A DNA stretch of 64,000 nt from a virus (taxonomy: Duplodnaviria > Caudoviricetes), in the IMG/VR virus record IMGVR_UViG_3300044740_000023, positions 1 to 64,000 of that record; one strand, given 5' to 3'. The position numbers were made by a program, and so were the translations under genes. A model generated the notes under the pieces. The model did no database searches. It was not told the origin of the DNA and worked only from the letters and a program-made list of their open reading frames with translations. Shown here in pieces: positions 10,068 through 63,439 of the stretch; the stretch's first letter is position 1; each line of letters starts with the position of its first letter.

Positions 10068-10291
10068 CGCGCCGCCATCATCGCGCGGCACTCTTCCTCG
10101 ATCCGGCGCATGCAGTCCACGTTGAAGATCGTGCCCGCCTGCGGGAAGAAGCAGTATTGCCGCCACGCGCCGTACCAGCGAATCTGCCCAAGCTCGCCCG
10201 AGGAGCGCCGGTTGCGCACGCTGACGATGCGCGTCTTGCGCACGTCGGGCACCGCGCAGTCCTCGAAGAAGATGTAGTCGTCGGCGCTCAC
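10064..10291 (-). CDS. conserved phage hypothetical protein
   Basis: LGQIRWYGAWRQYCFFP motif; GTGA overlap. Confidence 0.7.
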   Translation of the reverse strand: MSADDYIFFEDCAVPDVRKTRIVSVRNRRSSGELGQIRWYGAWRQYCFFPQAGTIFNVDCMRRIEEECRAMMAAR

Positions 10292-10602
10292 GCGAAGGCG
10301 TCGGCGGCAGGGCCGAGGACGGAGCGCAGGAAGCAGCGCCGGTGAATGTAGACGTAGCTGATCGTCACCTCGATGCCGGTCGAGGTGCGGCCCGAGGAGG
10401 ACAGAATCTCGCTGACGACGCTCTCCGGGGTCACGTCGGGCATGCGGAAGCCCTGGTCGCCGTCCTCGATCTCGTTCTGGCACCACCAGCACGTCTTGCC
10501 GACCGGCGTGTCCACCTTGTCGGCGTGCCAGTAGATCGGCGCTTCGAGCTTGTCTCCGAAGTAGTCCATGAAGTTGAGCGCCCCGGCATGGAGCGAAGCC
10601 AT
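10288..10602 (-). CDS. hypothetical protein (CWWC...HRRC)
   Basis: ORF in run of coupled genes; start may be 10569. Confidence 0.6.
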   Translation of the reverse strand: MASLHAGALNFMDYFGDKLEAPIYWHADKVDTPVGKTCWWCQNEIEDGDQGFRMPDVTPESVVSEILSSSGRTSTGIEVTISYVYIHRRCFLRSVLGPAADAFA

Positions 10603-10663: not shown

Positions 10664-11116
10664 ATGCGTGTAGTAGGACTGACCGTAGCCCTGGTGTTGG
10701 GGTGCTGTTCGCCCGCGTGGGCGGGGCATAGTGGCGGCATCCCCGGCAACAAGGTCGGGGGAGGCGATGCGGGGTGTACGGGCAACCCGCACGACTTCGG
10801 GCAGCCGACAGGCAACCCCCACGACTTCTCGGAGGGTCGGCCTACGGGCAACCCGCACGAGTGCGCGGAAGTGCGTGAAGAAGGACGGTGCGGCTGCCAT
10901 CCGTGTCCGCCGCCACCGCCGCCGCCGCCCGTGTGCCCGCCACCGACTCCGGTGCCGTGTCCGTGCTCGACGGTGACGAACGTGACCAACATCACCAACG
11001 TCACGAACATCACGAACGTCGTCGCGCCTAAGCCGCACAAGAAGCACCACAAGAAGAAGCACAAGCGGGTGCGCCATTTCCACCCGCACCCGAACCCGCG
11101 CATCTTCGCGGGCTGA
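10664..11116 (+). CDS. secreted low-complexity repeat protein
   Basis: SD GAAAGGA, signal peptide ending AWA, TGNPHD x3, poly-Pro, TNV/TNI repeats, Lys/His tail. Confidence 0.7.
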   Translation: MRVVGLTVALVLGCCSPAWAGHSGGIPGNKVGGGDAGCTGNPHDFGQPTGNPHDFSEGRPTGNPHECAEVREEGRCGCHPCPPPPPPPPVCPPPTPVPCPCSTVTNVTNITNVTNITNVVAPKPHKKHHKKKHKRVRHFHPHPNPRIFAG

Positions 11117-11161
11117 AAAGGAAGGCCACCGGGCAAGGTTGTCGAAGCTCGGTGGCCCTCC
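11116..11161 (-). terminator. intrinsic terminator (possibly bidirectional)
   Basis: minus strand GGAGGGCCACCG / CGGTGGCCTTCC stem followed by TTTT. Confidence 0.65.
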
Positions 11162-11203
11162 TTACTTCCGCATCAGGCACTCCAACTACGAGCGCCGCGC
11201 GGG

Positions 11204-11233
11204 AGCCTACAGAAATATCGGGGAGGCCGTCAA
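11204..11233 (-). promoter_or_regulatory. sigma70-type promoter
   Basis: TTGACG-N18-TAGGCT. Confidence 0.6.
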
Positions 11234-11239
11234 CCTAGA

Positions 11240-11905
11240 CGAAGGTCGAGGTCCAGGTCTGTCGCCACGACGATAGTTCTGTCAAGAGTCGGCGGTGAGC
11301 TTGGGCATCTGCTCGGTGAGTTGCTTCAGCACCGGGCATTCGCCGTTGCGTAGCAAGCGACGATGACTATGAGAGCGATCTCCATACAGCGAGGCTACGC
11401 CGCCGCTCTCGTGGTCGCTACGTGGCGAACTACTGAGATACGCGCGGCCCGCCCCGCCTAGCCCTCTCTGCCGAGTCGGGCGTCGGAACCGACAGGCGCG
11501 AGACCGCACTCAGATCAGCCTCGGCGGACGGCTGCATGACAGGCCCAACCGGACCCCACCGCGCCCGCTGCCGCGCGCGGGCAGCCTACTAGACCACTTC
11601 GGTAGGTCGCCGGTTCGTGGCCTAGTAGGAGCCGGTCCCTTGGTGCCCCGCAGGACCGGGTGCTCGCCTCGGGAGCGGGTGGACGTGGAGGGCACTCGAC
11701 GCCTTCAGAGCCGCGTTTCCCCGCAGGCAAGGGCCACACTACTACGCGGGGCACCCGAAGGTGCCCCGGCCCCAACACTCGCTAGGGGATAGCGGCCCGT
11801 CTTTGGTCCCTTGACCGTGTGCGCACCGAGGTAAGCGGGCGACCCTCCTGACCTCACCCTACCACCGCCCGCCAACCGATTTTTGCCGTGGCGCGACCGC
11901 AGTTG
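11240..11905 (-). ncRNA. candidate large structured RNA, family not recognised
   Basis: no convincing ORF; several stems that need G-U pairs only on minus strand; C(UUCG)G tetraloop at 11747-11768. Confidence 0.45.
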
Positions 11906-11907
11906 TG

Positions 11908-12237
11908 TCATGGGTCTGGATACTTCTGATGCTCCTGGCCGTGATGCGTGGGGCAAAGCCACCGAACCTCCAGCGGCTTGTCGTAATCGTCATGGTGCCC
12001 ATGCGTATTCGGGTCGCCGCAGACTTCGCATGGACGGCGCTCGATTCGCCCTTCCTTCACCGCTTCTCGAAGCCGCTCCCTAGCCCGCCGCTTCTTCGGG
12101 TCCTTCCCGACACGCCCCTCGGCCCGCATCTTCGCCTGCGCCGCGCGCGCCCGCGCTCGTTCCGGCTCAGGGTCGGCCCGGTAGTTGCGCCGTTTCCGCC
12201 TCGCTGCACGCGCTGCCGCCTCGGGCGTAGGCGGCAC
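11908..12237 (-). CDS. HNH-like endonuclease (frame open to 12420)
   Basis: CEVCG...HGHHDDYDKPLEVRWLCPTHH. Confidence 0.8.
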   Translation of the reverse strand: MPPTPEAAARAARRKRRNYRADPEPERARARAAQAKMRAEGRVGKDPKKRRARERLREAVKEGRIERRPCEVCGDPNTHGHHDDYDKPLEVRWLCPTHHGQEHQKYPDP

Positions 12238-12479
12238 ATACCGTTTCGGGTGCGCGCGCCTGTACGCCTGCCGTGTCGCCCGATATTTCGCCGCCTCGTT
12301 GTTCTCGCGCCGCCAGTTGCGTTTGCGGCAGAGCGACGAGCAGAAGCGCGCGGTTCCGGTCGTTGGCTGTCCACACTCCTCGCAGATGCGGTGAGGGTAA
12401 CGAGGCCATCGGACATCGCTTTACTTTGTGAAGTATTGCGGATTTTTCTAGGGATAAATTGTGCGAGTGTGTCCGGTGA

Positions 12480-12740
12480 GGGCGGTCGGGCGAGCCGGTC
12501 CCACGCCTTGGCGCATGGCCGGGGCGTCCGGGTGCGGATTGCACACGGCACGCGCCGCGCGCCGTCCGTGCGAGCGGTCCTCGCGGCGGCGGCGGCGGCG
12601 GCGTGCGCGCGTTCGGTCAGTCGGTCAGTCGGTCGCAGTCGGCGCGGCGGCGCGTGCGCGCTGTCGCGTGGCGGCGCGTGGCACATGACGCGGCGGCGTG
12701 CGCGTGGCGCGCGGCGGCGGCGGATAGCGTGGCGGCGCGT
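12480..12740. repeat. low-complexity GGC/CGCG-rich intergenic tract
   Basis: (GGC)n runs, alternating GC, GGTCAGTC x2. Confidence 0.6.
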
Positions 12741-14236
12741 CATCGTTCGGCGGCGGCGTCAGCGGCGGCGCGTGCGCGTGCGCGTGCCAGTCGCGCGCGC
12801 TTGGCGGCGCGTTCGCGCTTGGCGCGGTCGCTGTCGCTGTCGGCGGCGATGGTCAGCGGCGCGTGCGCGGGTAGCTTCGCGTACACGTTCCGCGCGGGTA
12901 TCGCGGCGAGTCGGGCGGCGCGCATGCCAGTCGGCGGCGCGTACACGGTCGGCGCGTGCGATAGCTGCTCGGACAGCGTGCGGAACCTTGGCGGCGGCGT
13001 GTACTTCGCGCCAGTCTCGCGCACGCCGAGTAGGTAGCGCATGCCTGCCGACATGCTCGGGCGTGTGGCGGCGACTGCGCGTCGCGTACCCTGCGCGCGG
13101 AGCACGGCGGCGGCGCGCTCGCGCTCGGCGCGCTCGCGCTCGATCTCGGCGTTCCGTTCGGCGTCGCGCTTGAGCGCGGCGGCGTTCGGCGTTCCGACAG
13201 CGGCGAGGGTTAGCGCGTGTAGGCGCGCGGCCTCGCGCTTGAGCGCGCGACCGACTAGCGGCGTGTGCGCGTCGCGCTTGGCGCGTAGTTTCTCGCGCCG
13301 TGTCAGCGTGCGGCGGCGTCCGCCCGGTAGCTTGCGAGTCTCGACATCGGCGGCGACATCGGCGCGCGAGTATCCCCAGTCGATAGCTAGGGTCCGTGCG
13401 CGGCGTTTGCGCGCCTCGCGCGAGTCATCGCCAAGCGTGAATAGGTAGCCCGTCGATAGCTCGCCGTCAGCGCGCCACGCCTCGCGCGCTGTCGCCGTGC
13501 GCGCGACTGTCCAAGTGTCGGCGGCGAGAATGATCGGCGCGCAGTCGGTCAGCGCGGCGAGCATGTCCGCCGCTGTCGGGTACGCGCCGCGCAGGTACTT
13601 GCGAGCGCGAGTCTGCGACTGCTCAAGCGTGGCGAGCGTGACCGATAGCTCGGCGGCGGCGGCGGCGTTCGGAACGTCGCGCGCGAGTCGGTAGAAGTAT
13701 CGGGCGACCTGCTCGCGCGCGCCGTTCGGCGCGTCCTTGGCGAGTCGGTCGGTTATCGCGGCGGCGACCTGCGCGGCGGCGCGCGGCGGATACTTCGCGC
13801 CGATCTTGAGCGTGTAGCGGTCGGCGTCCGTGTCATCGGCGGCGCGCTGCTCGGACGCCTCGACAGTCTCGCTGTCGGCGCGTTCGCGCGCGTCGCGCTT
13901 GGCGGCGTCGCGCCGGTAGTTCATGGCGCGACCGATGTAAACCTCGACAGTTTGGCGCGAGTCATCGGCGCGCGCAGACTCGCCACCGGCTAGATGCTCA
14001 AGCGCGACCATTACTAGGTCCGCCGCGCAGTCTAGGCGCGACTCGGCGTCCTTCCGCGCGCCGCCGAATACATGACGCGCCGCGATGTGAGCGCGCCGCA
14101 TGATCTCGCGCGGCGTGATTCTGCCCTCTAGCACGGCGCGCCGTTCCTGCGCGTCCGTTCGGATAGCGGACAGCGCGGAACGTGTCCGAGACTCGGCGGC
14201 GGCGACTTCGCGCGGCGTGAGAATAGTTCCTGACAT
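12740..14236 (-). CDS. sigma-factor-like protein with long Ala/Arg-rich extension
   Basis: region-4-like AAAELSVTLATLEQSQTRARKYLR and region-2-like segment; SD GGAAGG before ATG at 14236. Confidence 0.5.
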   Translation of the reverse strand: MSGTILTPREVAAAESRTRSALSAIRTDAQERRAVLEGRITPREIMRRAHIAARHVFGGARKDAESRLDCAADLVMVALEHLAGGESARADDSRQTVEVYIGRAMNYRRDAAKRDARERADSETVEASEQRAADDTDADRYTLKIGAKYPPRAAAQVAAAITDRLAKDAPNGAREQVARYFYRLARDVPNAAAAAELSVTLATLEQSQTRARKYLRGAYPTAADMLAALTDCAPIILAADTWTVARTATAREAWRADGELSTGYLFTLGDDSREARKRRARTLAIDWGYSRADVAADVETRKLPGGRRRTLTRREKLRAKRDAHTPLVGRALKREAARLHALTLAAVGTPNAAALKRDAERNAEIERERAERERAAAVLRAQGTRRAVAATRPSMSAGMRYLLGVRETGAKYTPPPRFRTLSEQLSHAPTVYAPPTGMRAARLAAIPARNVYAKLPAHAPLTIAADSDSDRAKRERAAKRARLARARARAAADAAAER

Positions 14237-14559
14237 GACTGACCTTCCCTTCCGTGTAGGCGTGGTTTGCACGCCTCAAATGATAGCGCGGCGCGACTGT
14301 AGTTGTGGCATTCCCGCGCCTGTGAAGGGAAGTCATGTCGCCGTGACATTCCTGACAGCGCGGCGATGTCAGCGGGTCCGTTCCCGCTGTCGCCGCTGTC
14401 ATCGCGGCGTCAGACAGGGAAGTCATCGCGGCGTGACATTCCTGACGCCTCGCGCTGTCAGGAATGTCACGGCGACATGACTTCCCTTCCCATCGCAGGA
14501 TGCGAGGCGCGTCGCGCCTCGCACACGTACACACACACACGGAAGGAAGGTCAGTCATG
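14234..14559. promoter_or_regulatory. divergent control region with 39-bp perfect inverted repeats
   Basis: 14324-14362 is the exact reverse complement of 14451-14489; third partial copy 14417-14446; mirrored leaders 14234-14257 and 14537-14559. Confidence 0.85.
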
Positions 14560-23703: not shown

Positions 23704-23891
23704 GCCGTCGCCGCGTTGGATGGCAGGTCCCACGCACTCGTCCTATCGAGATTGAGTGCCCGCATTGCAAGGCCAAGCCGCTGCACCCATGCAAGACAGC
23801 GAGCGGCTGGCCCATTCGCGGCTACCACCAGAGGCGCAAGCACGAGGCCGCGTTCATCAACTACCTCGACGTAAAGGGAGGATTCCGCTGA
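23700..23891 (+). CDS. zinc-finger protein
   Basis: CPHCKA....PC.....YH..R. Confidence 0.65.
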   Translation: MSRRRVGWQVPRTRPIEIECPHCKAKPLHPCKTASGWPIRGYHQRRKHEAAFINYLDVKGGFR

Positions 23892-24337
23892 TGGCGGTAC
23901 GAGTGAAGATCAGACGACTGAAGTTGCTGCAACTGCTGGAACAGGCCAAGCAGCGCAAAATCGCGGCACATGAGAAGCACATCGAGAAGTACAACGAGGC
24001 GCTCGCGAAAGCGCGCACAGAAATCGTCAAGGAGCTTCGCGCCAAGGCCGACGCAATCGAGGCTGGCGAGGATGTCTACCTTCGCAACGAATCGCGGGAT
24101 AAGGAACAACGCCCGCGCAAGGGACAGCGCTACGGCAGAACTGTCTACGTCAACATGCTCTGCTTCGACTCGAAGATCACGGTCCCGCGCAAGCCGGAAC
24201 GCAACGACAGCGAGATACACGAGATCGAGCGCTGCATCAAGCTGCTCGACGCGAGCGAAGAGGACACGATCACGGTCGGTGAGACCGACCTGCGCACCTA
24301 CGGCATCGGCTCCGCGCTCGCGCTGGAGGACGACTAG
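23891..24337 (+). CDS. hypothetical coiled-coil protein
   Basis: 148 aa coupled ORF. Confidence 0.65.
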   Translation: MAVRVKIRRLKLLQLLEQAKQRKIAAHEKHIEKYNEALAKARTEIVKELRAKADAIEAGEDVYLRNESRDKEQRPRKGQRYGRTVYVNMLCFDSKITVPRKPERNDSEIHEIERCIKLLDASEEDTITVGETDLRTYGIGSALALEDD

Positions 24338-24537
24338 GTGCCGCGCAAAGCAGGCTACGTCTACGTCGAAGTCGATTGGGAGCTTGACGGCCACTCGATG
24401 CGAAGCGCAGGCGTGACACGGATCGTCGGCATTCCCATCGACGAGTTCAACGACAGGTTCAACGAGCCGCCCGAGGAGTGGGTCGCTGACTGGCTCAGCG
24501 ACGAGCTTGGCTGGCTCGTCAAGGGATGGAGTTTCGC

Positions 24538-25590
24538 ATGACCAGTACGTTCGCGGACATCGAGCGGTCGCTACGACAGCCGCCGCCGATGTCCGAAGCA
24601 CCTACGCTCGCGCCGCTCAATCTGGATGAGCGCAGCGGCAACGAGCTTCGCCCGGCGACCTTCGATGAGATGGTCGGGCAGACACGACTCAAGTCGCTTC
24701 TACAGCGCGTGGTCTCGGTCGCCAAGACGACCGGCAAACCGCTCGACCACATGCTGCTTGTCGGCAGCGCTGGCACCGGCAAGACCACCTTCGCGCTCGT
24801 GATCGCGCATGAACTCGGGACGCGCGTGTTCATGCTCAAAGCGCCCGTCGCGTTCAACATGTTCGAGGCGCTGGCGCAGGCGGCGCGACCCGGCGACGTG
24901 TGCGTGATCGACGAGATTCATCTCCAATGTTCTGGTGATCGTCGCGGACTCACCCAAGCTGCGGACCCCGAGGTTTTCTACCACGTCCTTGAGGACAAGC
25001 GACTCATGGCCGAGAGCACGATGATCCCATTCCCCGACGTGACCTTCATCGGCTGCACAACTGACGCCGGACTCCTGCCAGAGCCGTTTCTGGACAGGTT
25101 CCCGCTCCAGCCGCAGCTTGACGAGTACACCGACGAGGAGATGGCGGTGCTGGCGAAGGCGAATGCCCGCTGGCTCGACATGCAGATCGACGACAGCGCG
25201 GCGCTGGTGTTCGCGCGCGCGAGTAGAGATGTGCCACGGCAGATCAACACCTACGTCCGCAACGCCCGGTCGCTCAACGTCGGCAGCATCGACGAGTGGG
25301 TGGCGAAGGAGATCGTCTGCTCGCTGAACAGCACGACTCTCGACGGGCTAACACGGGACATGCAGTTGATGTTGAAGTTCCTGCTGGCGTGCCGACGCGA
25401 AGATGCGAAAGGCAACGTCCGCTACCAGAGCGGTGTGAACAGCATCGCTACGGCGCTCGGCAAGTCGCGCGACTCGAAGGCGGTCGCGCTCTACGTCGAG
25501 CCGTATCTCATCAAGGCGGGCTACGTCATCGTCACGCACGGTGGCCGCGCGCTCACGGACAGAGGCAGAGAAAGGGCAGAACAGCTATGA
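24538..25590 (+). CDS. ruvB: RuvB-like Holliday junction branch-migration ATPase
   Basis: LRP..FDEMVGQ, LDHMLL.GSAGTGKTT, IDEIH, IG.TT..G.L..P..DRF, PR, LDGL, EPYLI..G....T..GR. Confidence 0.88.
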   Translation: MTSTFADIERSLRQPPPMSEAPTLAPLNLDERSGNELRPATFDEMVGQTRLKSLLQRVVSVAKTTGKPLDHMLLVGSAGTGKTTFALVIAHELGTRVFMLKAPVAFNMFEALAQAARPGDVCVIDEIHLQCSGDRRGLTQAADPEVFYHVLEDKRLMAESTMIPFPDVTFIGCTTDAGLLPEPFLDRFPLQPQLDEYTDEEMAVLAKANARWLDMQIDDSAALVFARASRDVPRQINTYVRNARSLNVGSIDEWVAKEIVCSLNSTTLDGLTRDMQLMLKFLLACRREDAKGNVRYQSGVNSIATALGKSRDSKAVALYVEPYLIKAGYVIVTHGGRALTDRGRERAEQL

Positions 25591-25823
25591 AGAGGCTACG
25601 CGAGCAGTTTCGCGCCGACGAGGACGCGCTTGAGAGCGCGGTCGCGATGGTCACGAATGACCTAAACGCCGTCATCAGCGACGACGACGTGCAGGGCACC
25701 TACGAGTCGCTGGAGAGCCTCACCAAGTCACTCAGCACGCTCGACGACAACGTGACGCAGTTCATGGAGAACGCGGAGCGCGCGCTGGAGGAGGCCGAAG
25801 CGAAGGCGGACGCGCGGACATGA
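25587..25823 (+). CDS. hypothetical protein
   Basis: ATGA overlaps. Confidence 0.6.
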   Translation: MKRLREQFRADEDALESAVAMVTNDLNAVISDDDVQGTYESLESLTKSLSTLDDNVTQFMENAERALEEAEAKADART

Positions 25824-46764: not shown

Positions 46765-49096
46765 AGCCTTCCGTGCTCTGCGTGGCTTCACGCGGTTCGA
46801 GTTCGCCGCCCTTGCCGTTCGGCGGGGCTTCTTCGTTGATGATCGCCACGATTGCCGCCACGTCCGGCGTGTCGATCAGGGAGCCGACCAGCGTGGTCAC
46901 GAACTTCCGGTTCTCGCCGTCGATGAACGTCGAGGCGCGCTCGCGCACGGAGAGGCGCGTGGCGAGGCCGGTGCCGAGGTCCATGAGCATGACGTGATCG
47001 TCGATGTCCATGATCGCGGGCGCACCGGGGAATTCGACCGTGGCTTCACACTCCGCGATGGCTTGCTGGAGCGCGATGAAGAGCGCCGCGTTTTTGCAGA
47101 GGTCCACCGTCGCAAGCTGCGGGTTTTTTTCGACCACCACCTTCTGCACGCCCGCGAGCCGCGAGTCGGCGTAGCGTGCGCCCGGCGTGCCAGCCCACGG
47201 CGGGATCAGGTCATACATGACGAACTTGCCGCTGGTGATCGCGGCTGACATGTTGCCCGGCAGCGACTTCGTGATGCCGATGGCACGGATCAGGCTCGAC
47301 AGCGGTTCAAGCGAGAGCTTCAGGTCGATGGCGGTGAGCATGGAGCGGTCGGTGATGACTGGCGGCGGGATGCCGGGGCGTGCGAGCGCCGCGCTGTTAC
47401 CCCGCTGTGCCCAATCGACGTTGCCGTTCGCCTCGATCCCCGCTTCACGGAGTTCCTTTTCGGCTGTCGTGTCCGGTGACAGGACTCTAGTTTTCCTGAA
47501 CGTCGGGATGCCGAGGCTTTCTTCACCGTTCACCGGCCCGCCCTGCGCGGGGTCCTGCGCGGGGTCCGCCAAGAAGAAGATGAAGCCGATACCTTCCGCG
47601 ATTTCGCGGATAACGTCCATGTAGGACTTATCCTGAAAGCAGATGATGCGCTTGGGCAATCGAAAGCCGGTGAGCGGGATGTCCCATTCCTTGAAGCCTG
47701 CCCATTGACAGAGGATGCGGATGACATCGGCAATATCTTCGGTGAGTACCCATTGGTCCTTGCCCGCGGCGGCTTCGGTCGCTTCGCGCAGACCGTGCAG
47801 TCCGTTCAGGCCCGCGCGGAACCCGCCTTCGGTCGCGTGCAGTTTGCGGAAGCTGATGCGCAGGATGCTGCCGTTGCCCACGCGATAGGCGACTGATGTG
47901 CCGGGGCCGGGGGAGTTGTCGAGCGGCGGACGCTGAAAGCCGGTGGGGAAGTTGGCGATGAAGCGCGTGTAGGACACACCACCGAGCACACCCGGCACGA
48001 GTTGTTCTTCTTTTTTGGTGATGTCCACCCATCCGTTTTTGTCGAGCCATTTGTTTTCGATGGTCATATCTTCGGCGGGCGCGCTCGTTTCCTTGCGCGT
48101 CGGAGCCAGACCACCTGTCAGTTTTGTTGGCCGGAGTGAGATATAGACATCGAGGCCCGCCCATTGCGCGAGCATCTCGCAGAAGTTGTACCGGCCCTCC
48201 GGTAGCCTGATCTCCACCCACTCGGTCTGTTCCGCGCTGCCGAGTAGGTTCGTCTGCCACCACGTTGCTTTGTTGAAGTCGGTGACAGCCGTGGCCGGAT
48301 GTTTGCCGCTGCTATCTTCGTTCGATGCCGTGGCTTCGCCGCCCACGTCCGACTTCAGCGCGGCGTCGTCGGCGTCCACGAACACCACCGGGGTCGCGAT
48401 CACCGGGTCCTTGCCAGCGCCGAAGAAGTGCGTGTCGGTGAATACGAGGCCGAAGTCGCGCGCCGTGATGACGATGCGGTCGGGTTTCGAGGTCGAGTCG
48501 ATGTTTTCGATCAGGCCCGTGAACACCTTGACTAGATTCGTGCCGTAGCCCTGGTAAATGGTGATCTGCGCTGCCTCAGCGAATTTGCCTGCCCATTCGT
48601 TCGCGGCGAACGCTTCAGCGATTGCTTCGAGTTCTGCGAGCCACGTTCCCGCGAGCGCTTTCACGTTCGCCGGACCTTCGACCCTGCCGCGCAACGGAGC
48701 CATCGCGCCGCGCTCGCGAGCGTGATAGCCACCGCCGCGTTCGGGATAGAGAATGTTCTCTACCTCGATGGTGGCCGTGCCAACGCTGCCCTGCTGTTTT
48801 TCGAGCTTCTTTTCGTGCTTGGCTTCGAGCACGTTTGGCACGACGACGTAGCTCGACGTGGGCAGCCACAAGCCCTGCCAAGGCTTCGCGTAGTACGGAT
48901 TTTTGCCGTTCAGCCCGACGCGCGCCTGACACGGGTAGTTAGCCTGATCCCACGTCTGATGGCCCGCGCCCATCGGCGCTTCGCCTTCGGCTTTGTTACC
49001 GACCGGGTTGTCCTGGTAGTAGTGAGTGAAGCGCCCGAGTCTGATCTTGACGACCTGTGTCGGAGTCGCCGGGCCGATGTACTGCGGGACGGGCAC
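46757..49096 (-). CDS. baseplate hub/Tal-like tail protein with discoidin (F5/8 C)-like insert
   Basis: TGLIE.I....D.I.I.ARD; AS..S..HPA.A.TD....TWW.T....EWVEI.L. Confidence 0.75.
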   Translation of the reverse strand: MPVPQYIGPATPTQVVKIRLGRFTHYYQDNPVGNKAEGEAPMGAGHQTWDQANYPCQARVGLNGKNPYYAKPWQGLWLPTSSYVVVPNVLEAKHEKKLEKQQGSVGTATIEVENILYPERGGGYHARERGAMAPLRGRVEGPANVKALAGTWLAELEAIAEAFAANEWAGKFAEAAQITIYQGYGTNLVKVFTGLIENIDSTSKPDRIVITARDFGLVFTDTHFFGAGKDPVIATPVVFVDADDAALKSDVGGEATASNEDSSGKHPATAVTDFNKATWWQTNLLGSAEQTEWVEIRLPEGRYNFCEMLAQWAGLDVYISLRPTKLTGGLAPTRKETSAPAEDMTIENKWLDKNGWVDITKKEEQLVPGVLGGVSYTRFIANFPTGFQRPPLDNSPGPGTSVAYRVGNGSILRISFRKLHATEGGFRAGLNGLHGLREATEAAAGKDQWVLTEDIADVIRILCQWAGFKEWDIPLTGFRLPKRIICFQDKSYMDVIREIAEGIGFIFFLADPAQDPAQGGPVNGEESLGIPTFRKTRVLSPDTTAEKELREAGIEANGNVDWAQRGNSAALARPGIPPPVITDRSMLTAIDLKLSLEPLSSLIRAIGITKSLPGNMSAAITSGKFVMYDLIPPWAGTPGARYADSRLAGVQKVVVEKNPQLATVDLCKNAALFIALQQAIAECEATVEFPGAPAIMDIDDHVMLMDLGTGLATRLSVRERASTFIDGENRKFVTTLVGSLIDTPDVAAIVAIINEEAPPNGKGGELEPREATQSTEGYG

Positions 49097-50069: not shown

Positions 50070-53000
50070 TACCGTGTCAACCCCGCGTTCCGTAGTTGGG
50101 CGGCGGTGAGGGAGCCGAACACACGCTCCATTTCTGCCGCGAAGCGTCCCGGCTCCGAGCCGGTCACGTTGACGCGAATCGAGTTGTGCTGATGCAGGAC
50201 CGGGTGCGGCACCGAGGACGGCGAGAACTGCGTGAGGCCCGGTGCGCTCCTCGGGCGTCGGCGCGTGAGCGTGAGCGCGTCGTAGAGCGTCGGAGCCTGC
50301 GTGACCGCGCCCACGGCGAACGAGCGGTTAGCGTCCTCCTCGTAGCCGTAGATGTTCTGCTCGATGTCACGGCGCTGCTGCGGCGTGAGTTTGTAGCGCC
50401 GCGATTCGCGGAGGATTTTCTGTTCGCGTTCGACGGCCTGTACGTTGGTGATGCGTCCGGTGCCGAGCAGGAACTTGGTTTCGTTCTGCGCTTCCTGTCG
50501 CTCTTCTTCGGCCTGCTTGATGCGCAGGTTGTTGATCTGCGCCTGAGCCTTCTCTTTTTCTTCCGGCCCCTTCGCGAATTTCAATTCGCGCTCTGCGCCA
50601 CGGAGTTCGATACCGATGCGCCTGAGCGGGATGTTGGTGAACGAGGCCGCGAGTTCGGTCTGCGTGCGGATGCGCTGCTTGAAGGCTTCGCGCAACTGGT
50701 TTTCGGACTCGACGAGGAGTAGCTGAGCCTGCGCCTGTTCGACCGGGTTGCGAGCGATGGCGAGCAGCGCCTCCGCTGTCCGTTTCGCGGCCTGCGCCTG
50801 CGCCACGGCGTTGCCCGGTAGACGGGCCTGTTCGATCTGCCCGCGAAGCTGGACGGTCTGCTCTTCCTGCGAATGTGCGACTTCGCTGTAGGCACGACTC
50901 GCTTCCGCCGCCGACGCCTGGAACTGGAGTTTTTCGATAGGCGAGTAGCGACGGCTCGCCTGCACCGCTGCGGACACACGCGCCGCTTCACGCGCACGGA
51001 CAGCGGCGAGTTCGACCGGGTTGTTTGCCCCGACTTGAGCTTCGGCAAGTTTGCCGCGCGCCTGGACGAGTTCGACCTGTTCGCGTTCGGCCTTGACCTC
51101 GTTTTCCTGTTTGCTCGTGCGCGCCGATTCGAGTTGCTTCAACGCGGCGGCGTGTTCCTCGGAGTATGGACTCTTCGAGTGGAGTTCTTTCAGCGCCGTT
51201 TTTTCTTCCCTGCGCAACTGCTTGTTCTCTTCTGCACGCTGCGCCGCAGGGCTACCGGCAAGCTCTGCCACTTTCCGTCCGGTGGTGAGTTTGCCTTCTT
51301 CAAATTCGGCTTCGATGGTGGCGCGCGCGGAGGCGCGAGCGGCTTCCTGAAAGACCGTCTGGATGTGGCCCGCCGCCTGCCCGATCCCTTCGATCTCCTT
51401 CTTGAACCGCTCCGCGTTCTGTTCGATCTGCGCGAGATCACCCTGAAGGCGCGCGCGCTTGTCCGACGAGGCGGCGTGCGCGATTTCCTGCTTGACCTTC
51501 GCCTTCGCCGCTTCCTGCTGAGCGAGTCCTTCCTTGGCTGTCTGGAGCGGCGCTTCGACGCCCGATTCGTAGTATTCACTCAATTCGCTGCGCAGCGTGT
51601 TGAACGCCGAGCGGCGCTCCCTGTTATTCGTCGCAGCGGCGAGCCGCTGTTTGAACCGTTCCTGAGACACCGTGCCGATGTCGCTGAGACCCGTCTGCAA
51701 ACGGCTCGCGTATTCTTCGAGTTTCTGCGGTTCGAGAGTCGAGCGCTCGATGGAGCCGCCGAGGTATTGCGCGATTTCATTCAGGGCATTCCGGCCCGCG
51801 CGCGTCCCGCCGTAGAGCTTGGCTGCGGCGTCGAGGCGCTTGATCCGTTCTTGCAGGAGTTTGCTGCCTTCGGACCCGCGTCCGGTTTCACCTGCCTCCG
51901 CTTCGTATTCAGCCCTGACAGTTTCCGCCGAGACCGCCGCGTTGAGCCTGCGTTCCTCAGCGGCGGCACCGGGCGCGCCCGGCCTGATGGTGGGCAGCCT
52001 GCCGTGCGCTTCGAGTTTCGCGAACGTCCGGGCACGGAGTTCGTCTGACGCGATGATGCGCGCGTTAGCTTCGTCCTGACTGATGCCCTTTTCAACCCGC
52101 TCGCGTTCCTTCCCGGCGTCGAAGCCGAAGAGTCCTGCCACCTGACTGATGCCCGGCGCTTCGAGAATCCCAAGGCCGATGTTGGTGATACCGCCAAGCA
52201 CCCCGCCGTAGCGGTAGTCGAGGTTTGTCGGCTTCGCTTTCGCCGCGAGGTATGCGGCGGCACCGCCCACGAAGGCACCGGGGAGACCAAACGCGAGGCC
52301 ACCCGCTGCGGCCCCGAGGCCGATCTGCGATGACGCGCCTTCCAGTTTTTTGCCGAAGCTGCCGCCAAACGCTTCACCGATGACGTTGGCGGCGATGGCT
52401 CCGAAGAACGCCGTGTTGAATGCGCCGAGTAGCTTGCCGCCGTAGCCCTGGAAGCGCGCGCTCAGTTTGCTGCGTAGCTCCCCAACTTGAGTCGCGATCA
52501 GACCCTCGCTGGAGAGGGGTGAACCGAACTGCGAGAGAAGTGTGGCTCCGTAGATGCTGTTGACCCGCGCTGCCGCCCTGCTCGCGAGGCCCGCGCTCGC
52601 GAGGCCCACGTCAGCGGATGCCGCGACCTTAGCCATGCCCTGCCGCTGCACCAGGATGAGTTTCTCGTTGCCCTCCGCGACGGCGTTGGTGAAGCGCGCC
52701 TCGGCTGCCGTCGCCTCCTGCGCCCCACCCTCGGTGAAGATGAGCGGCCCGCCGCCCTCCTTCAGCCGTTCATAGCGGCCCTTGTTGCGGAGGGCTTCTT
52801 TCTCAGCCTTGTCGTAGGCTTCGATGGACGCCTGACGGTTCTTCTCCAGGTCCGCTCTGTCGGCGGCAACTTCGCGCGCCTTTGGCGTGAGACCGAACCG
52901 CTCCTCGATGTTCGCACTCGGGCCGTATTTGCGTTCGTGCTCTTTCAGCGCTTCGTCGCTGAGTTCGACACCTTCCGCACGGCGCGCCACGGTCTCCGCG

Positions 53001-55315: not shown

Positions 55316-55651
55316 CTATTTGTCGAACCCGATGAGCAGCCTGTCGCGGAGTGCGTTCTTCATCATCGGCCCCGAGGACTCGTCGCCGCCCTTGCCTTCC
55401 ATTTCCGCCTTGCGCATCGCCTTCACGTCAGCCCACCACTCCTCCATCGCATCGCTGTTGAGCCAGATGCGCTTAGGCGGGCGCTCCTTCTCGGGTAGCT
55501 CCTCGAACGACAGGAACCCAAGCGCCGCCATGATCGCGTTGTGGACGGTGTACGGAAGGTCATACGCTCGTTCGATGCCGTGCGGATACAGGGATGAGAT
55601 GTCACCGAGGTCACGAGCGAGGCGAACAACGCTCAGCCACCTCTCATCCAA
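55316..55651 (-). CDS. tail assembly chaperone, frameshift (gpGT-like) part
   Basis: -1 frame continuation of upstream gene. Confidence 0.8.
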   Translation of the reverse strand: MDERWLSVVRLARDLGDISSLYPHGIERAYDLPYTVHNAIMAALGFLSFEELPEKERPPKRIWLNSDAMEEWWADVKAMRKAEMEGKGGDESSGPMMKNALRDRLLIGFDK

Positions 55652-55653
55652 GA

Positions 55654-56508
55654 TCAGTTTCCCGAGGCATCACCCCGGTTTAGCCGCGACTCAAGTTCGT
55701 CCAACGCCTCGTCGAGTGCCCGAATCACCTCGGGCGGCGCGGCCTTCATGTCGTCCATCTTCGGCCAGTAGCGGAACGACGCGACTCCACCGGGGCACTT
55801 GCGCGTGCAGATGAAGCCCATCCAGGTGTAGTAGGTGGTGCTGCGCATCTGCTCCGCTTCGTGCTCGATACGATGCTCGCGCAGCGCCTCGCGGAACGGC
55901 TCGTCAGCGAGCGTGCGCAGCCCCGCGCGGATGTTCTCCCGTTCGGCGCTGATCCGCGCTTCGAGGGTCTCGTCGTACTCGGCCACGAGCTTCGTGAGGG
56001 TGTCGAAGTCGTCGCTCCGCTGGTCCTCGGGGAGCGCTTGCTGGCGGACTAGCTCCTCGCGGTGCTGGCCGATGTCCGCGAACTCCTCCTGCTCGCGTAC
56101 CTCCGTGATGAGGTCCATGATCTTCTTGCGCAGCTTGTCCTCTGCGATCAGAACGACGTAGCCCTCGCGATCCTCGCGCATCGCTTCGTCGAGTTCGGAC
56201 TCCAAGATCGCGTAGGCGTCGGTCTCGGGGTCGCGGAAGGCCATCTTGCGCCGCGCCGCCGCAGCCCGGCCCTTCTCCACGATGTCGTTGTGCTGGAGCG
56301 TGTTCGGCAGGCAGAGCCATGCGTGGAAGTGCTGCGGGTCCTTGCACTCGCCGTCCTCGCGGTGCTCGCACTCCCGCGCGCCCTCTCCGACGTGGACGTA
56401 GGTGCTGTACTCGAAGAGATGGGCGCTCGTCCGTGTCGCCTCTGCGCCGCCCTCAGCGGGCGCGCCGTTCTGTTCGGCCTGCTCCGGTGCCACCGTTGAT
56501 GCCTCCAT
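55654..56508 (-). CDS. tail assembly chaperone (gpG-like)
   Basis: position and slippery site. Confidence 0.8.
   Translation of the reverse strand: MEASTVAPEQAEQNGAPAEGGAEATRTSAHLFEYSTYVHVGEGARECEHREDGECKDPQHFHAWLCLPNTLQHNDIVEKGRAAAARRKMAFRDPETDAYAILESELDEAMREDREGYVVLIAEDKLRKKIMDLITEVREQEEFADIGQHREELVRQQALPEDQRSDDFDTLTKLVAEYDETLEARISAERENIRAGLRTLADEPFREALREHRIEHEAEQMRSTTYYTWMGFICTRKCPGGVASFRYWPKMDDMKAAPPEVIRALDEALDELESRLNRGDASGN
55657..55663 (-). other. -1 programmed frameshift heptamer G-GGA-AAC
   Basis: TCG GGA AAC TGA; -1 frame reads GGG AAA CTG ATC TTG GAT into 55316..55651. Confidence 0.85.
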
Positions 56509-56565
56509 TTTCGTACCTCCCTAGTGGTGTTGCCGTGACGTAAGTTAGCTCATCGGGCCGACGAC

Positions 56566-58035
56566 TCAGTTGACCCGCACGATGTCGAGGAAGATGTCGT
56601 AGCCGGTCTCGTTGTTTTCTTCGCCGCCTGGCGCGCCGAGTAGCTGGTATTCGAGCTTGATCTTGGTCCCGGCTTTGATGCGCCATATCCACGAGTCCGT
56701 GGGGTCGGGGTTGACTTCCCTGCCGAGGTACACAGACGAGTAGATCGTGTCGCCCGCGTCGATGCCGCCCGCCGTAGTGCTTGGGCGCAGCCATACCGCC
56801 TCTGCGTGTTTGGCGTTGCTCATCCCCCACCGCAGGCGCAGCATGTAAGTGCCCGCCGTTTTGACTTCAATCTCTTCTTCGTTCGGCAGCGCGAGGTCCG
56901 TGCCTGCGCCCCCGGCAGCGCCCGGTGTTTTCTTCCACTTCAGCGGATTGAGTTTCCCGTTGTTTTTGAACGTCGCCGGTTCCGCGTTGGTGGCGTTGTA
57001 TTCGAGATGCAGACGACTGTCGGGCACCGTGCCCGCCGCGCCCGTTTCGCCTTTTTCGCCTGTTTCGCCTTTTTCCCCGCGTTCGCCTTTTTCACCGCTA
57101 CCGCCGACCGCTTCGAGCGGGGCCGTGCGGATTTCGTGATTGCCGCAGGTGATGTAGATAGTCGGGCCAACGATGAGCGCGTTGAGAGCGCCCTGTTCGA
57201 CGGGAAGGTAATTTGCGTCGGGGAACTCGGGATCGGTATGCACGCGCCCGACACCTTCACCATCCGTCCAGTACAGATCGTGCCCGTGTACCGCCATGTG
57301 CCGCACGGCTTCCGGCACGCGCAGCCAGTAGGGGTCGTTGCCACCTTCGACGATGTGCCGCCCGATGTAAAAGCGTTCTTCTTCGTTTTCGACATATCTC
57401 CAGCCGTAATAGACATACGGCCCGGCAGCGGCGATACCTGCCGTGTTTCGCGAAAGCGGCACCATGCGTGCTTCATGGCCGCTTCCGTCCACCTTGATGC
57501 GCCCGATCCATTCGTAGTAGTTGGGGCCTTCTTCACCTTCCCACACGAAGTACAGCCATTCACCGCTAACCGCGATGTCATGCATTTCACCCTTTTCGGT
57601 GAAGGCCGCGTGCTGCCATTCGGGTTGCGCTTCACTCCCGTTGATATTCGCGCGCCCGAGCCAGAGTGTCCCTTCGCTCCACGGCGCGTTCCACGACCAG
57701 AAGAGGAGCCATTCGCCTTCGTCGGGCGTGTAACAGGCGAGGCCCACGACGTTGCGCCCCGGCGCAGCCAAGAGCCAATGGGCTTCGCGCGTGCCGTTGC
57801 CGATATTGACCCGTTCGATGTATTCGCCGTTGGCGAGGTAGAGATATGTGCCGTCTGTGGCAGCCTGCCCCGCATTCGACGTGCCTGTGACGAACTGCCG
57901 AGTGGGACCAGGCACCGGGTCGCCAAGCAGCGCGGCGACAGCCTCGTCGTCCTCGATGCCGAGCACCGCCGCGATCAGGTCGAAGTCGAAGCCCCTGTTC
58001 GCGAGGGTCTGCGCACGCTCAACGAGCGTGGGCAT
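56566..58035 (-). CDS. beta-propeller protein with collagen-like linker
   Basis: repeated blades (...YLY.A, I.R....G); GEKGERGEKGETGEKGETG. Confidence 0.75.
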   Translation of the reverse strand: MPTLVERAQTLANRGFDFDLIAAVLGIEDDEAVAALLGDPVPGPTRQFVTGTSNAGQAATDGTYLYLANGEYIERVNIGNGTREAHWLLAAPGRNVVGLACYTPDEGEWLLFWSWNAPWSEGTLWLGRANINGSEAQPEWQHAAFTEKGEMHDIAVSGEWLYFVWEGEEGPNYYEWIGRIKVDGSGHEARMVPLSRNTAGIAAAGPYVYYGWRYVENEEERFYIGRHIVEGGNDPYWLRVPEAVRHMAVHGHDLYWTDGEGVGRVHTDPEFPDANYLPVEQGALNALIVGPTIYITCGNHEIRTAPLEAVGGSGEKGERGEKGETGEKGETGAAGTVPDSRLHLEYNATNAEPATFKNNGKLNPLKWKKTPGAAGGAGTDLALPNEEEIEVKTAGTYMLRLRWGMSNAKHAEAVWLRPSTTAGGIDAGDTIYSSVYLGREVNPDPTDSWIWRIKAGTKIKLEYQLLGAPGGEENNETGYDIFLDIVRVN

Positions 58036-58968: not shown

Positions 58969-60258
58969 CTATTCGCCCTTCACCTCTTCAAACGTGCCGG
59001 TCTGCGACTCCCATGACAGCGGCAGCGAGAGCACCTGGAGCACTTTCGCGAACGTGCCGGGAATCTGGAGCAGCGCGTCTTTCACCCGGATCGACTTCAG
59101 GACGACAGTCGGTTCTTTCGGGTTGTAAATCTTCGCTTCGAGCGGCTGCGGGTTTTCGTTGAGGTAGCCAAACACCTCTTTGCGGCTGACACCCGTGAGC
59201 GTTTCGAGCGCCTGATACAGCGCCTCCTTTTCCTTCGGCTCGATCTGAATGGTGCCGTTGCAGTCGATGCCCGTTTCGTTGTAGCCGATGGGGTCGAATT
59301 CGCCCATCTCGCGCTGCACTTCGCCCGAGTGCGTGGCGTTGAGGTCGAAGCTCTGAATGCCGTGGAGCTTGACCTTTCCTTCGCCTTCTCCGACGAGGAT
59401 TTCGATGTTGCGGCCACGGACGGCAGCCGGGGTGACAGTCGTGGAAGCGTGCGCCGCTTCGTTGATTTCTTTTTTGACCGCCGCGAAGTAAATCCACTTG
59501 ATGACCGCACCTTCGGCGGGGGGCACGGTGAATTTGATTTTGACTTTGGCGGGCGCTTTGCCCGGTTCTTTCGTGCCTTCCTCTTTGTAGTCCACACCCG
59601 GCTGCTGAATGACGCCGTTGACGAGGACTCCGAGGATCGCCTTGTAGGTCGTGCCACCTGCCCCGCCGATGCGGTAGACGCGGCAGACCTGTCCCGTTTC
59701 AAACGTCGCGGTCGCGCCGTTGCCGGTAGCGGTCTCCTCGATGGGGTACGCGCCCATCGCTGCTTTCGATTCCGCGTTTTCGGCTTCGTCGGCCATGTAG
59801 TACGTGCCGCCGTTGAGCGTGACCGTCTGCTCAGCGTTCGCGGTGACGCCGAATTTGTATGACAGCGCGGTCGGGTAGTACATCGGGACGACGACGCCGG
59901 ACGTGATGTGGGTGTGTTCCCCGGTGGGGTCCTGCGCCCACGGGCACGCGAGGTTGATGAACTGGCAGTTGCGCCAGTCGTATTTCGTGCCGTTCGGGTC
60001 GGCGTGGGCCGGGCCTTCGTTGCCGCCCATCGCGCCGACTTTGCCGGTCAGCATCGCCATCATGTCGCAGGACACGTCCCACGAGGTCATCTGGAAGCTG
60101 AAGTTCGCCTCGGTGAGAATCTTCCCCACAACGAGGTCGTTGCCGGTCTCACGGATGGTCTCGGTCGGGATGCGCGGGTTCTGGAGACCCGAGTCCTGAA
60201 GGCGGTCTATGACGTTGAGGCCACCGACTGTGATGATATGCCCGGCAGGAATGCTCAT
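58969..60258 (-). CDS. major tail (tube) protein
   Basis: 429 aa, position after tail completion genes. Confidence 0.75.
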   Translation of the reverse strand: MSIPAGHIITVGGLNVIDRLQDSGLQNPRIPTETIRETGNDLVVGKILTEANFSFQMTSWDVSCDMMAMLTGKVGAMGGNEGPAHADPNGTKYDWRNCQFINLACPWAQDPTGEHTHITSGVVVPMYYPTALSYKFGVTANAEQTVTLNGGTYYMADEAENAESKAAMGAYPIEETATGNGATATFETGQVCRVYRIGGAGGTTYKAILGVLVNGVIQQPGVDYKEEGTKEPGKAPAKVKIKFTVPPAEGAVIKWIYFAAVKKEINEAAHASTTVTPAAVRGRNIEILVGEGEGKVKLHGIQSFDLNATHSGEVQREMGEFDPIGYNETGIDCNGTIQIEPKEKEALYQALETLTGVSRKEVFGYLNENPQPLEAKIYNPKEPTVVLKSIRVKDALLQIPGTFAKVLQVLSLPLSWESQTGTFEEVKGE

Positions 60259-60596
60259 GTGGTCTCAGTCGCCTCCGTATCGTTGAACGCAAATCGCTCC
60301 GCGAGATCGGTGGAGAGGTCTCCTACCTGATCGCCGGGCTGCACCTTCAGCGCCCGGATGCCCTCGTAGGCCAACCCGTTGATCTTCTCGCGGCAAGTGC
60401 TCTTGAACGTGTCGATTGCCTTCTCGTGTCCGGGCGGAATGAGCGGCTCAATCACCTTCTCGAACTCCCCGAGGAGGGTGAGCATGGCCGACCTGCGCCG
60501 CCGATGTATTGCGGCCTCTGGACCGCTGTCGTCTTGGCCTAATATACGCGGCTGACCACCGTTTTGCGCGACTTGAGTCGTGGCGCGGGCGCTCAC
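60255..60596 (-). CDS. hypothetical protein
   Basis: coupled ORF. Confidence 0.55.
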   Translation of the reverse strand: MSARATTQVAQNGGQPRILGQDDSGPEAAIHRRRRSAMLTLLGEFEKVIEPLIPPGHEKAIDTFKSTCREKINGLAYEGIRALKVQPGDQVGDLSTDLAERFAFNDTEATETT

Positions 60597-62510: not shown

Positions 62511-63439
62511 CAGAACCCGGTCGGCGGGTACATGACGGGCACGACAGCCGCCTCCTGTCCACCGGGCAGGCCACCGGGCACGTTGACATCGAAGTAGCCA
62601 GCCCACCACTCCAGCACGGCGACCGTCGCCTGATCGCGCACACGGATGTTGGAGGCGTAGCGGTCGAGCACCGGGATGTTGATGCGCAGGCCCGCGATGG
62701 CTTTGTCGCGCTCGTCGATCAGCGAGTTGAGGTAGTTGCGGATCAGGTTCGCGGACAGGCTCCACGTCCACTCCGTTCCCTCGTTCTTGATGCTTTCGCT
62801 GATCTTCATGTTGTTGAAAACGTGGAAGTAGTAGTTGAGCGCGACCTGTGCGGCGATGATCGCTGTCTCCCACTCGGTCAGCGGTGTGTCGGTGCGCCAG
62901 CGCGTCGGATAGCCGCCGAGCGGGTCGCGCTCCTTCACGAGCAGTTCGTGGTGGAAGAAGCTGCCGCTGAGCATCACGACATCGCCGCAGGCGTCCGCGA
63001 TCATCGCGTACAGTTCCGCGTCGGTCAGCGGCGGTCGCTTGTTCGCGTTGCCCCACGGACCTTCCACCTTGCGTCGCGCGCGCGGGACGAGCACGTACAG
63101 ATCGGTGAGGTCGGGTGGCGTGCCATCCCACCGTTCCGATTCGACTTCGAGCTTGCCCTGGCTGACAGCGGTGCCCGCCTTGAGCCATTCCCAATGCCAG
63201 AGGCCGGTGACTTTCGGGACGTAGTTGGCGTGGTAGTGCCCCGTCGAGTCGTGGTGGATTTCTCCACCTTCGAGCGTGTGTTGTTTGATTTCCGCTGAGT
63301 CGGTCAGTTTCGGCTCGACGAGGCGCAGCTTCAGTTCTTCGACATCTTCCGGCGCGCCCGTGTCCGGGTTGGTCATCACCGTGCGGAACGTCGCCGTGCT
63401 GCCCGTCGTGACGGTGGGGATGGGGTCCTCAGCGCTCAT
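62510..63439 (-). CDS. head-tail adaptor-like protein with N-terminal Ig-like domain
   Basis: DS.G.Y.A......G.W...W N-domain; helical C-domain. Confidence 0.6.
   Translation of the reverse strand: MSAEDPIPTVTTGSTATFRTVMTNPDTGAPEDVEELKLRLVEPKLTDSAEIKQHTLEGGEIHHDSTGHYHANYVPKVTGLWHWEWLKAGTAVSQGKLEVESERWDGTPPDLTDLYVLVPRARRKVEGPWGNANKRPPLTDAELYAMIADACGDVVMLSGSFFHHELLVKERDPLGGYPTRWRTDTPLTEWETAIIAAQVALNYYFHVFNNMKISESIKNEGTEWTWSLSANLIRNYLNSLIDERDKAIAGLRINIPVLDRYASNIRVRDQATVAVLEWWAGYFDVNVPGGLPGGQEAAVVPVMYPPTGF

Follow-up and report, generated by a model that had tools for sequence, protein, structure and literature searches.

A putative cis-acting RNA module in a long non-coding interval beside the HNH gene of a high-GC phage

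What is encoded in the stretch directly downstream of the HNH gene of this phage, where no convincing open reading frame is found? The original prediction held that about 660 nt here (11240-11905) form one large structured RNA, which is co-transcribed with the HNH protein and perhaps works with it. The window analysed here comprises the first 64 kb (64,000 nucleotides) of an IMG/VR virus record of 85,805 bp with 64% GC (IMGVR_UViG_3300044740_000023, hereafter G000), the ends of which overlap by 18 bp, which makes the assembly circular in effect. Phage and host are uncultivated, and one terminase relative in an actinomycete MAG suggests that the host is probably an actinomycete. The same phage is carried by a JGI contig that is 100% identical to the window and, judged by gene layout, by an independent Logan contig.

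The minus-strand genes of G000 run downwards from a divergent region near 14.3 kb, and the locus is made up of the following features:

12740-14272, minus strand: gene for a sigma-like protein of 510 aa, the first of the leftward genes.
11908-12411 (stop to stop; stop codon 11908-11910), minus strand: HNH endonuclease gene, upstream of the non-coding interval.
11117-11907 (791 nt), minus strand: non-coding interval, presumed to be the 3' untranslated trailer of the early leftward unit of sigma-like and HNH genes.
11118-11163, both strands: hairpin resembling a bidirectional intrinsic terminator, with a 14-bp GC stem (-31.1 kcal/mol, z -5.2).
10664-11116, plus strand: convergent gene, which borders the non-coding interval at 11117.

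The sigma-like gene shows clear GC3 periodicity down to about 12790. The frame of the HNH gene agrees with codon periodicity, and its product, which matches PHROG 2340 at E 3e-18, carries a DUF2116-type zinc ribbon; the gene has no normal start. In the public gene calls, a 228-aa ORF in the wrong frame runs across the HNH region and the HNH gene is left uncalled; such calls are unreliable in the HNH and trailer stretch of G000. Among 5.8 billion protein clusters, both the sigma-like protein and the 228-aa ORF are singletons, and the matches of a neighbouring lipoprotein span its repeat only, so that no closer relative of the phage was reached through the neighbouring proteins.

The interval 11117-11907 is non-coding. 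Its GC content by codon phase is flat over 11161-11907 (0.67/0.64/0.68, chi-square p=0.65), a measure which, as a genome-wide detector of non-coding DNA, is too unspecific for ranking this gap against others; codon periodicity reaches p<=0.004 for the HNH gene, the plus-strand gene, the sigma-like gene and a 104-aa gene at 10288-10602. None of the longest ORFs in the interval (87, 85, 75 and 61 aa) matched a PHROG family, and the gene calls of the Logan contig leave a gap of 941 nt here, among neighbouring genes that overlap or lie no more than 190 nt apart. The ORF-free stretch that had been noticed is therefore genuine and wider than thought, i.e., 791 nt rather than about 660 nt. One minus-strand frame (11010-12056) contains 11 TAG and zero TGA or TAA over 349 codons. 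When read through its amber codons, this frame gave 0 matches in 1.84 billion representative proteins, and frames interrupted by TAG only are also seen antisense to several real genes of G000, because GC is high at one codon phase. Amber recoding was thus rejected as a common antisense-frame artefact without periodicity or homologues. A protein-coding gene in either the standard or an amber-recoded reading was likewise rejected, given the lack of periodicity, of any PHROG match and of homologues.

As had been proposed, the interval lies downstream of the HNH gene. Both are on the minus strand, and no terminator was found from the HNH stop to 11163. The hairpin at 11118-11163, which closes both the trailer and the convergent plus-strand gene, is a GC hairpin followed directly by a U-tract. 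Its GC stem and the U-rich 3' side on the minus strand give it the appearance of a bidirectional intrinsic terminator, which a simple terminator scan missed because its loop is 12 nt long. The UUCG-capped hairpin at 11747-11768 is no intrinsic terminator of this kind, having no U run after its stem, and is not listed by the scan.

Four further stems had been predicted within the interval, and all of them are present, each being more stable on the minus strand than on the plus strand:

11834-11873, minus strand: stem of 8-9 bp with a 22-nt G-rich loop (-14.8 vs. -13.3 kcal/mol on the plus strand, z -1.1).
11745-11770, minus strand: UUCG-capped hairpin of 9 bp with a C(UUCG)G loop (-20.9 vs. -20.1 kcal/mol on the plus strand, z -4.4).
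11632-11659, minus strand: hairpin with a 14-nt loop, which displays the repeat X2 described below (-18.2 vs. -14.8 kcal/mol on the plus strand, z -2.9).
11585-11629, minus strand: hairpin with a 13-bp stem that includes one G.U pair (-24.6 vs. -22.8 kcal/mol on the plus strand, z -5.1).

These local hairpins are real. The preference for the minus strand amounts to 0.8-3.4 kcal/mol for the four stems, and the terminator shares it slightly. As significant structure, three of the stems hold, including the 9-bp stem with its C(UUCG)G loop at 11747-11768, whereas the one at 11834-11873 folds on the minus strand no better than shuffled sequence. The hairpin at 11585-11629 is the most significant local structure in the trailer. 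Folded as a whole, the interval reaches -366.5 kcal/mol on the minus strand (z -2.4) and -339.2 kcal/mol on the plus strand (z -1.6; 20 shuffles each). Among windows of 120 nt, only those in 11050-11290, 11530-11680 and 11680-11830 fold better than shuffles, whereas those in 11380-11530, 11590-11740 and 11770-11900 do not. The structure of the trailer is thus local rather than global, since about half of the interval folds like shuffled sequence.

Searches against known RNAs agree with the earlier impression that tmRNA, RNase P, SRP and intron signatures are absent. A scan of the whole window with Rfam 15 (4227 families) gave no match at the gathering score, and at E<=10 the segments 10900-12700, 11560-11910 and 11100-11600, together with the corresponding locus of the relative G004 introduced below, gave chance-level matches only. 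ARAGORN found no tRNA or tmRNA in the window, in the rest of G000 or in the scanned loci of G004. A group I/II intron or an HNH mobile cassette was rejected, as there are neither intron models nor a split host gene; an 11-nt flanking repeat is at chance level.

A terminase search led to five related IMG/VR records, one of which, G004, is a usable relative. This phage has 79.8 kb and is syntenic with G000, with proteins that are 30-70% identical, including a homologue of the sigma-like protein. Behind the sigma-like gene, each phage carries an accessory arm (G000, about 10.5 kb; G004, about 13.4 kb). These arms have no protein in common at E<=1e-5, tblastx between them gave composition-driven noise only, and G004 has no HNH homologue. 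The hairpin at 11585-11629 is not conserved in G004. When the interval was compared with the five terminase-related records, a single 27-nt core was recovered, in G004, and this core lies within a module with the following parts:

11731-11798, minus strand: conserved 68-nt module with three helices (P1-P3), the only DNA shared by the arms above chance.
11798-11792 with 11737-11731, minus strand: closing stem P1, 7-8 bp.
11787-11781 with 11776-11770, minus strand: P2 hairpin, 7 bp, with a 4-nt loop (11780-11777).
11768-11760 with 11755-11747, minus strand: P3 GC hairpin, 9 bp, with a UUCG loop (11759-11756).
11763-11780, minus strand: invariant 18-mer, which covers the P2 loop, the P2 3' strand, the junction and the start of P3 and is identical in G000 and G004.
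11651-11642, minus strand: X2, where the 5' arm of P3 recurs within the 14-nt loop of the 11632-11659 hairpin.

The core is 93% identical over its 27 nt and lies in the same arm and orientation in both genomes, in each case within a non-coding gap and 110-155 nt past a stop codon; its blastn E value of 0.039 (whole genome) takes no account of this syntenic placement. The gene that the module follows in G004 is unrelated and encodes 87 aa. The match of the 18-mer and core is unique in each of the two genomes. Where the 18-mer recurs exactly in other IMG/VR records and in metagenomes, its flanks are unrelated and several of the copies lie in coding sequence; exact and degenerate core patterns in these collections likewise occur in unrelated contexts only. 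Judged by the flanking codons, some of the 18-mer copies sit in lipoyl-synthase-like or zinc-finger coding sequence. No homologue of the interval was found by blastn among phage GenBank records, nothing matched by blastn and nhmmer in the loci around HNH relatives, and the actinomycete MAG with the terminase relative gave low-complexity GC matches only.

A covariance model built from G000 alone (R1) nevertheless finds the G004 copy with 31.5 bits (E about 1e-5 to 2e-5, in 313 kb), in a match that spans all 68 positions and all three helices; the same model gave zero matches in 151 Actinomycetes-class genomes. All 19 comparable pairs form in G004, with two double and five single compatible changes, and the fraction of paired cells, which is 100% in the proper register, falls to 42-58% when the partners are slid by 1-3 columns. 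The changes between the phages are two compensatory and one compatible in P1, three compatible single changes in P2, all of which are C/U opposite G, and one compatible change in P3. P2 needs G.U pairs and can therefore form only on the strand from which the genes of the arm are read. P3 has 9 bp with C(UUCG)G in G000 and 7 bp with an 8-nt loop in G004, and a direct reading of the G004 hairpin (60077-60098) gives an A-U to G-C change relative to G000. The module is thus conserved with pair-preserving changes between two sequences. The original prediction had looked to covariation among homologues, and what was obtained is one relative in which 68 nt are kept and the pairs preserved; the covariation carries no statistical power, because there are only two sequences and the shuffle control reached it in 140 of 500 trials.

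The individual helices differ in how much they contribute. P1 is weak on its own, given the chance probability of a helix of its length (G000, p=0.27; G004, p=0.026). P1-P3 is the minimum-energy fold of the G000 sequence in a 186-nt context, whereas in a 98-nt context the minimum-energy fold of G000 is a rod without P2, and the G004 segment is no more stable than shuffled sequence (z -1.3). Since UUCG-capped GC hairpins with similar arms recur as ordinary intergenic hairpins in both phages, P3 and its repeats may be generic. A conserved micro-peptide was rejected as the origin of the core, since the frame through it lacks a start codon in G000, has stops on either side and keeps 18 nt identical without a synonymous change.

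A further shared property lies outside of the module. X2 can pair without mismatch with the 3' arm of P3 and one further base, which upholds the exact complementarity between the 10-mer at 11746-11755 and 11642-11651 that had been pointed out before (shuffle p=0.008). The second copy of the P3 5' arm lies 95 nt downstream in G000 and 179 nt downstream in G004. The arm sequence of G004 differs from that of G000, and the distal copy in G004 is a 9-mer perfectly complementary to the P3 3' arm of G004 itself (shuffle p=0.0115). The distal repeat hence co-varies with the P3 arm between the two phages. In G004, 13 nt separate this copy from the start codon of the gene that follows (AUG at 60301). 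According to the computed energies, the long-range pairing costs 2.7 kcal/mol relative to the local one in G000 (-91.6 vs. -88.9 kcal/mol) and 0.6 kcal/mol in G004 (-116.7 vs. -116.1 kcal/mol). The two loci have a parallel layout, with the module, the distal copy, 400-480 nt, a convergent hairpin and one or more opposite-strand genes. The 400 nt after the distal copy of G004 hold a gene of 125 aa with no known family, the counterpart of which in G000 is a stretch of about 480 nt without an ORF, and the trailer has no protein similarity to the genes of G004. Scans for a sigma-70-type promoter consensus found none in G000 and G004.

Based on these observations, we favour, with a probability of about 45%, the reading that the interval is the untranslated tail of an early operon, with hairpins, a terminator and one small conserved cis-acting RNA module that is probably a pairing switch. 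We infer that the interval is transcribed, that it acts at the RNA level and that it has a switching function. The trailer would be the long untranslated 3' end of the first leftward early unit (the sigma-like gene and then the HNH gene), would stop at the strong bidirectional terminator shared with the convergent plus-strand gene, and would consist of a string of independent GC-rich hairpins rather than one large folded RNA. Within it, the 68-nt module would serve as a conserved cis-acting RNA element, in which the P3 3' arm may pair alternatively with its own 5' arm or with the distal copy. From the position of the distal copy of G004 in front of a start codon, the switch would set the translation of, or the read-through into, whatever follows the early transcript. 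In G000, the regulated gene has apparently been lost, leaving a spacer of about 480 nt before the terminator.

Terminator/antiterminator RNA switches and phage antitermination sites such as lambda nut and HK022 put form a class with which this predicted tail can be compared. Like these, it would have a cis-acting hairpin module ahead of a terminator in the early transcript, and an invariant segment, single-stranded or in a loop, goes together with a hairpin that varies; as in terminator/antiterminator switches, two near-isoenergetic alternative pairings appear possible, according to the folding model. We note four differences. First, the module is present in one copy per genome, whereas nut and put sites occur once per early operon. 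Second, the capped hairpin of the module lacks the U-tract of terminator/antiterminator switches. Third, there is no sequence similarity to nut or put. Fourth, no cognate antiterminator protein was identified for the module, in contrast to phage antitermination systems. The hairpins at 11585-11629, 11632-11659, 11747-11768 and 11118-11163 also resemble the GC-rich intergenic stem-loops and terminators of high-GC phages and their hosts. Unlike ordinary terminators, however, the module hairpin adjoins an 18-nt block that is identical across phages with 30-70% protein identity, and it has a co-varying distal repeat in both G000 and G004.

The most serious rival is that the core acts as DNA, either as a binding site for a phage protein (a repressor/operator, ParB-like or recombinase site) or as a linker for module recombination, with the hairpins being ordinary terminators. 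Each phage has the half-site in direct, inverted and again direct orientation, and the copies co-vary as operators do; such a pattern would look like the sites of DNA-binding proteins as well. However, the inverted half-sites are 4 nt apart in G000 but 8 nt apart in G004, and a change of spacer is poorly tolerated by dimeric DNA binders and easily by hairpin loops. In addition, the 5' strands of P1 and P2 carry six substitutions, every one of them a transition that preserves G.U or G-C pairing, and this on one strand only. The core is unique in each genome with unrelated DNA on both flanks, G000 uses a repeated junction sequence at gene boundaries and the phage encodes a tyrosine recombinase, all of which would suit a DNA site; the core is nevertheless 17 kb away from the recombinase gene and about 21 kb away from the terminase gene. 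We regard a DNA site as unlikely. An attP site in particular is unlikely because of this 17-kb distance and since the genome searches did not recover the core, and so is a cos/pac site served by the HNH enzyme, given the distance to the terminase gene and the lack of an HNH gene in G004.

Slightly less credit can be given to the proposal that the interval is debris, i.e., one or more decayed accessory genes plus terminators, in which the hairpins are by-products of GC content or of duplications and the core is a functionless relic. Decay would account for the ORF-less stretch that takes the place of the similarly long 125-aa gene of G004, for the adjoining HNH gene without a normal start and for the fact that much of the interval folds like shuffles. 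The hairpin at 11632-11659, moreover, is a mosaic of three 9-mers that are also found in or just upstream of the module, which suggests duplication. However, a decayed gene has left neither residual codon periodicity in the interval nor protein similarity to the genes of G004, and the only TGA/TAA-free frame matches nothing. Drift also does not explain how an 18-nt block stays identical while its flanks and the neighbouring genes have diverged beyond recognition.

It seems improbable that the module is cut from the early transcript to act on its own as a small antisense RNA, as P1/P7 c4 and P4 CI do, which would make it the actinophage counterpart of this class, pairing with a co-evolving copy at the ribosome-binding site of a downstream gene. 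The c4 RNA is processed to a discrete RNA of about 77 nt and represses an antirepressor operon; its recognition segments are exposed and complementary to targets that recur on either side of it on one transcript, the downstream target being at a ribosome-binding site. The module shares with c4 (RF01695) and P4 CI RNA a place as a small RNA within a phage early operon, which is here a prediction from sequence, and a closing stem round two adjacent hairpins, with a 9-nt 3' linker as in the consensus structure of the Rfam C4 family. A complementary distal copy is present in both phages, and in G004, 13 nt before the AUG of the downstream gene, it would be a target near a ribosome-binding site; the tyrosine recombinase hints at a temperate or plasmid-prophage lifestyle. 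The RF01695 model, however, scored 13.1 bits at 11705-11775 on the minus strand (E=10 in a 351-nt scan) against a gathering score of 45, used a different helix register in G000 and gave no match to the G004 copy. Furthermore, the complementary segment is one strand of a 9-bp stem and thus hidden instead of being displayed in a loop, G000 has no target gene following the module, the downstream gene of G004 belongs to no known family, and the host is probably an actinomycete rather than an enterobacterium. The biology of the P1/P7 c4 and P4 CI RNAs is reportedly set out in Citron & Schuster 1990, which is listed in PMC8198154.

Least probable is that the whole 660-790 nt form one large structured ncRNA that is co-transcribed, and possibly works, with the HNH protein: the interval is long and non-coding, it shares the strand of the HNH gene and no terminator separates the two, and its minus strand is 27 kcal/mol more stable than its plus strand (z -2.4), with five of five local hairpins favouring the minus strand, but the structure is patchy, only 68 nt are conserved, no Rfam family was matched above chance level, and there is no homologue in phage records, in the IMG/VR pattern scans or in the 151 Actinomycetes-class genomes. 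The suggested partnership with the HNH protein is not supported either, since the conserved part is present in G004 without an HNH gene, and the HNH homologues of at least three other phages directly precede the next gene, with no such trailer behind them. The length of about 0.8 kb is comparable to that of large RNAs such as GOLLD, ROOL, OLE, HEARO (the omega RNA of IscB), tmRNA, RNase P RNA and group I/II introns, and the trailer adjoins an HNH gene as do HEARO and intron-borne endonucleases. Unlike these RNAs, it has no Rfam or tmRNA match and no flanking split host gene, and the HNH protein of G000 is a small free-standing endonuclease, unlike IscB or an intron maturase. The result thus removes a tempting but unsupported idea, namely that a small HNH nuclease has a large RNA as its partner.

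Should the module indeed be a working RNA switch within the untranslated tail of an early operon, it would represent an unclassified regulatory RNA motif from little-known high-GC soil phages, and the hairpin arm and its distal copy would constitute a built-in specificity pair that differs between relatives. Such RNA specificity pairs underlie RNA-based immunity in P1 and P4, and to our knowledge none has been described in actinophages. If the less probable relationship to the c4/CI class were true, each phage would possess its own RNA-based specificity, which could serve either immunity or timing.

Inspection of the 5′ part of the HNH gene for its start codon and reading frame concerned the following two features.

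12237-12411, minus strand: 5′ part of the HNH gene
12057-12743, minus strand: 228-aa arginine-rich ORF, given by public gene calls in place of the HNH gene

The zinc-ribbon part of the HNH gene shares one frame with the nuclease part, but in that frame ATG, GTG and TTG are all absent upstream of the GTG at 12237. An ATG at 12409-12407 lies in a frame offset by one base, which would join the HNH frame at a run of C (12397-12395) followed by the rare codon UCA. This arrangement possibly reflects a true 1-nt frameshift, in which case the gene is a pseudogene, or +1 recoding, or an ATC at 12386-12384 possibly serves as the start codon. An assembly error is unlikely, because an independently assembled Logan contig shows the same 228-aa ORF call spanning this site. 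The 228-aa ORF itself is a singleton among 5.8 billion clusters, and GC by codon position agrees with the HNH frame rather than its own; it is probably a miscall.

The surroundings of the HNH gene include a further non-coding stretch and a convergent gene.

12413-12739: second non-coding stretch, separating the sigma-like gene from the HNH gene
10664-11116, plus strand: gene with a lipoprotein-type signal, oriented opposite to the HNH gene

The second stretch (327 nt, GC 73-80%) lacks codon periodicity (p=0.95); at its end, an AT-rich patch (12413-12470) possibly serves as the HNH gene's own promoter. The HNH gene thus has non-coding stretches on both sides, a placement like that of free-standing mobile endonuclease genes, which are often flanked in this way. 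The convergent gene encodes a lipoprotein-type signal (LGC), tandem peptide repeats (DNA periods of 9 nt and 12 nt), a run of prolines and a tail rich in His and Lys. It has atypical codon usage, its relatives in the databases align with the repeats alone, and it looks like a moron.

Four long frames have TAG as their sole stop.

11010-12056, minus strand
12689-14233, plus strand
23857-25650, minus strand
55598-56848, plus strand

Three of the four are antisense to real genes. High GC3 combined with Tyr codons preceded by C-ending codons accounts for this pattern, which can mimic amber recoding in this genome.

Two features were noted in the syntenic relative G004 (IMGVR_UViG_3300037069_002825).

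G004 72955-75682 (loci L054, L042): split large-terminase gene
G004 50200-50600 (locus L053 10201-10601): hairpin-rich patch with no periodicity

The alignment places terminase residues 1-158 at 72955-73419 and the remainder, residues 159-576, at 74414-75682; the stretch of about 1 kb between them may represent an intron, intein or inserted endonuclease gene. The hairpin-rich patch, 1.4-1.8 kb downstream of the G004 sigma-like gene, reaches a folding z of -4.2 on the transcribed strand and is not homologous to the non-coding trailer downstream of the HNH gene. The hairpin at 11747-11768 in the window and those at G004 47214-47292 (minus) and 63050-63085 have GC stems with closely similar arms; two of the three are UUCG-capped, and that at 63050-63085, which has a U/A-rich tail, is a textbook terminator. 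GC hairpins of this type seem to be the standard intergenic stem-loop of this phage group.
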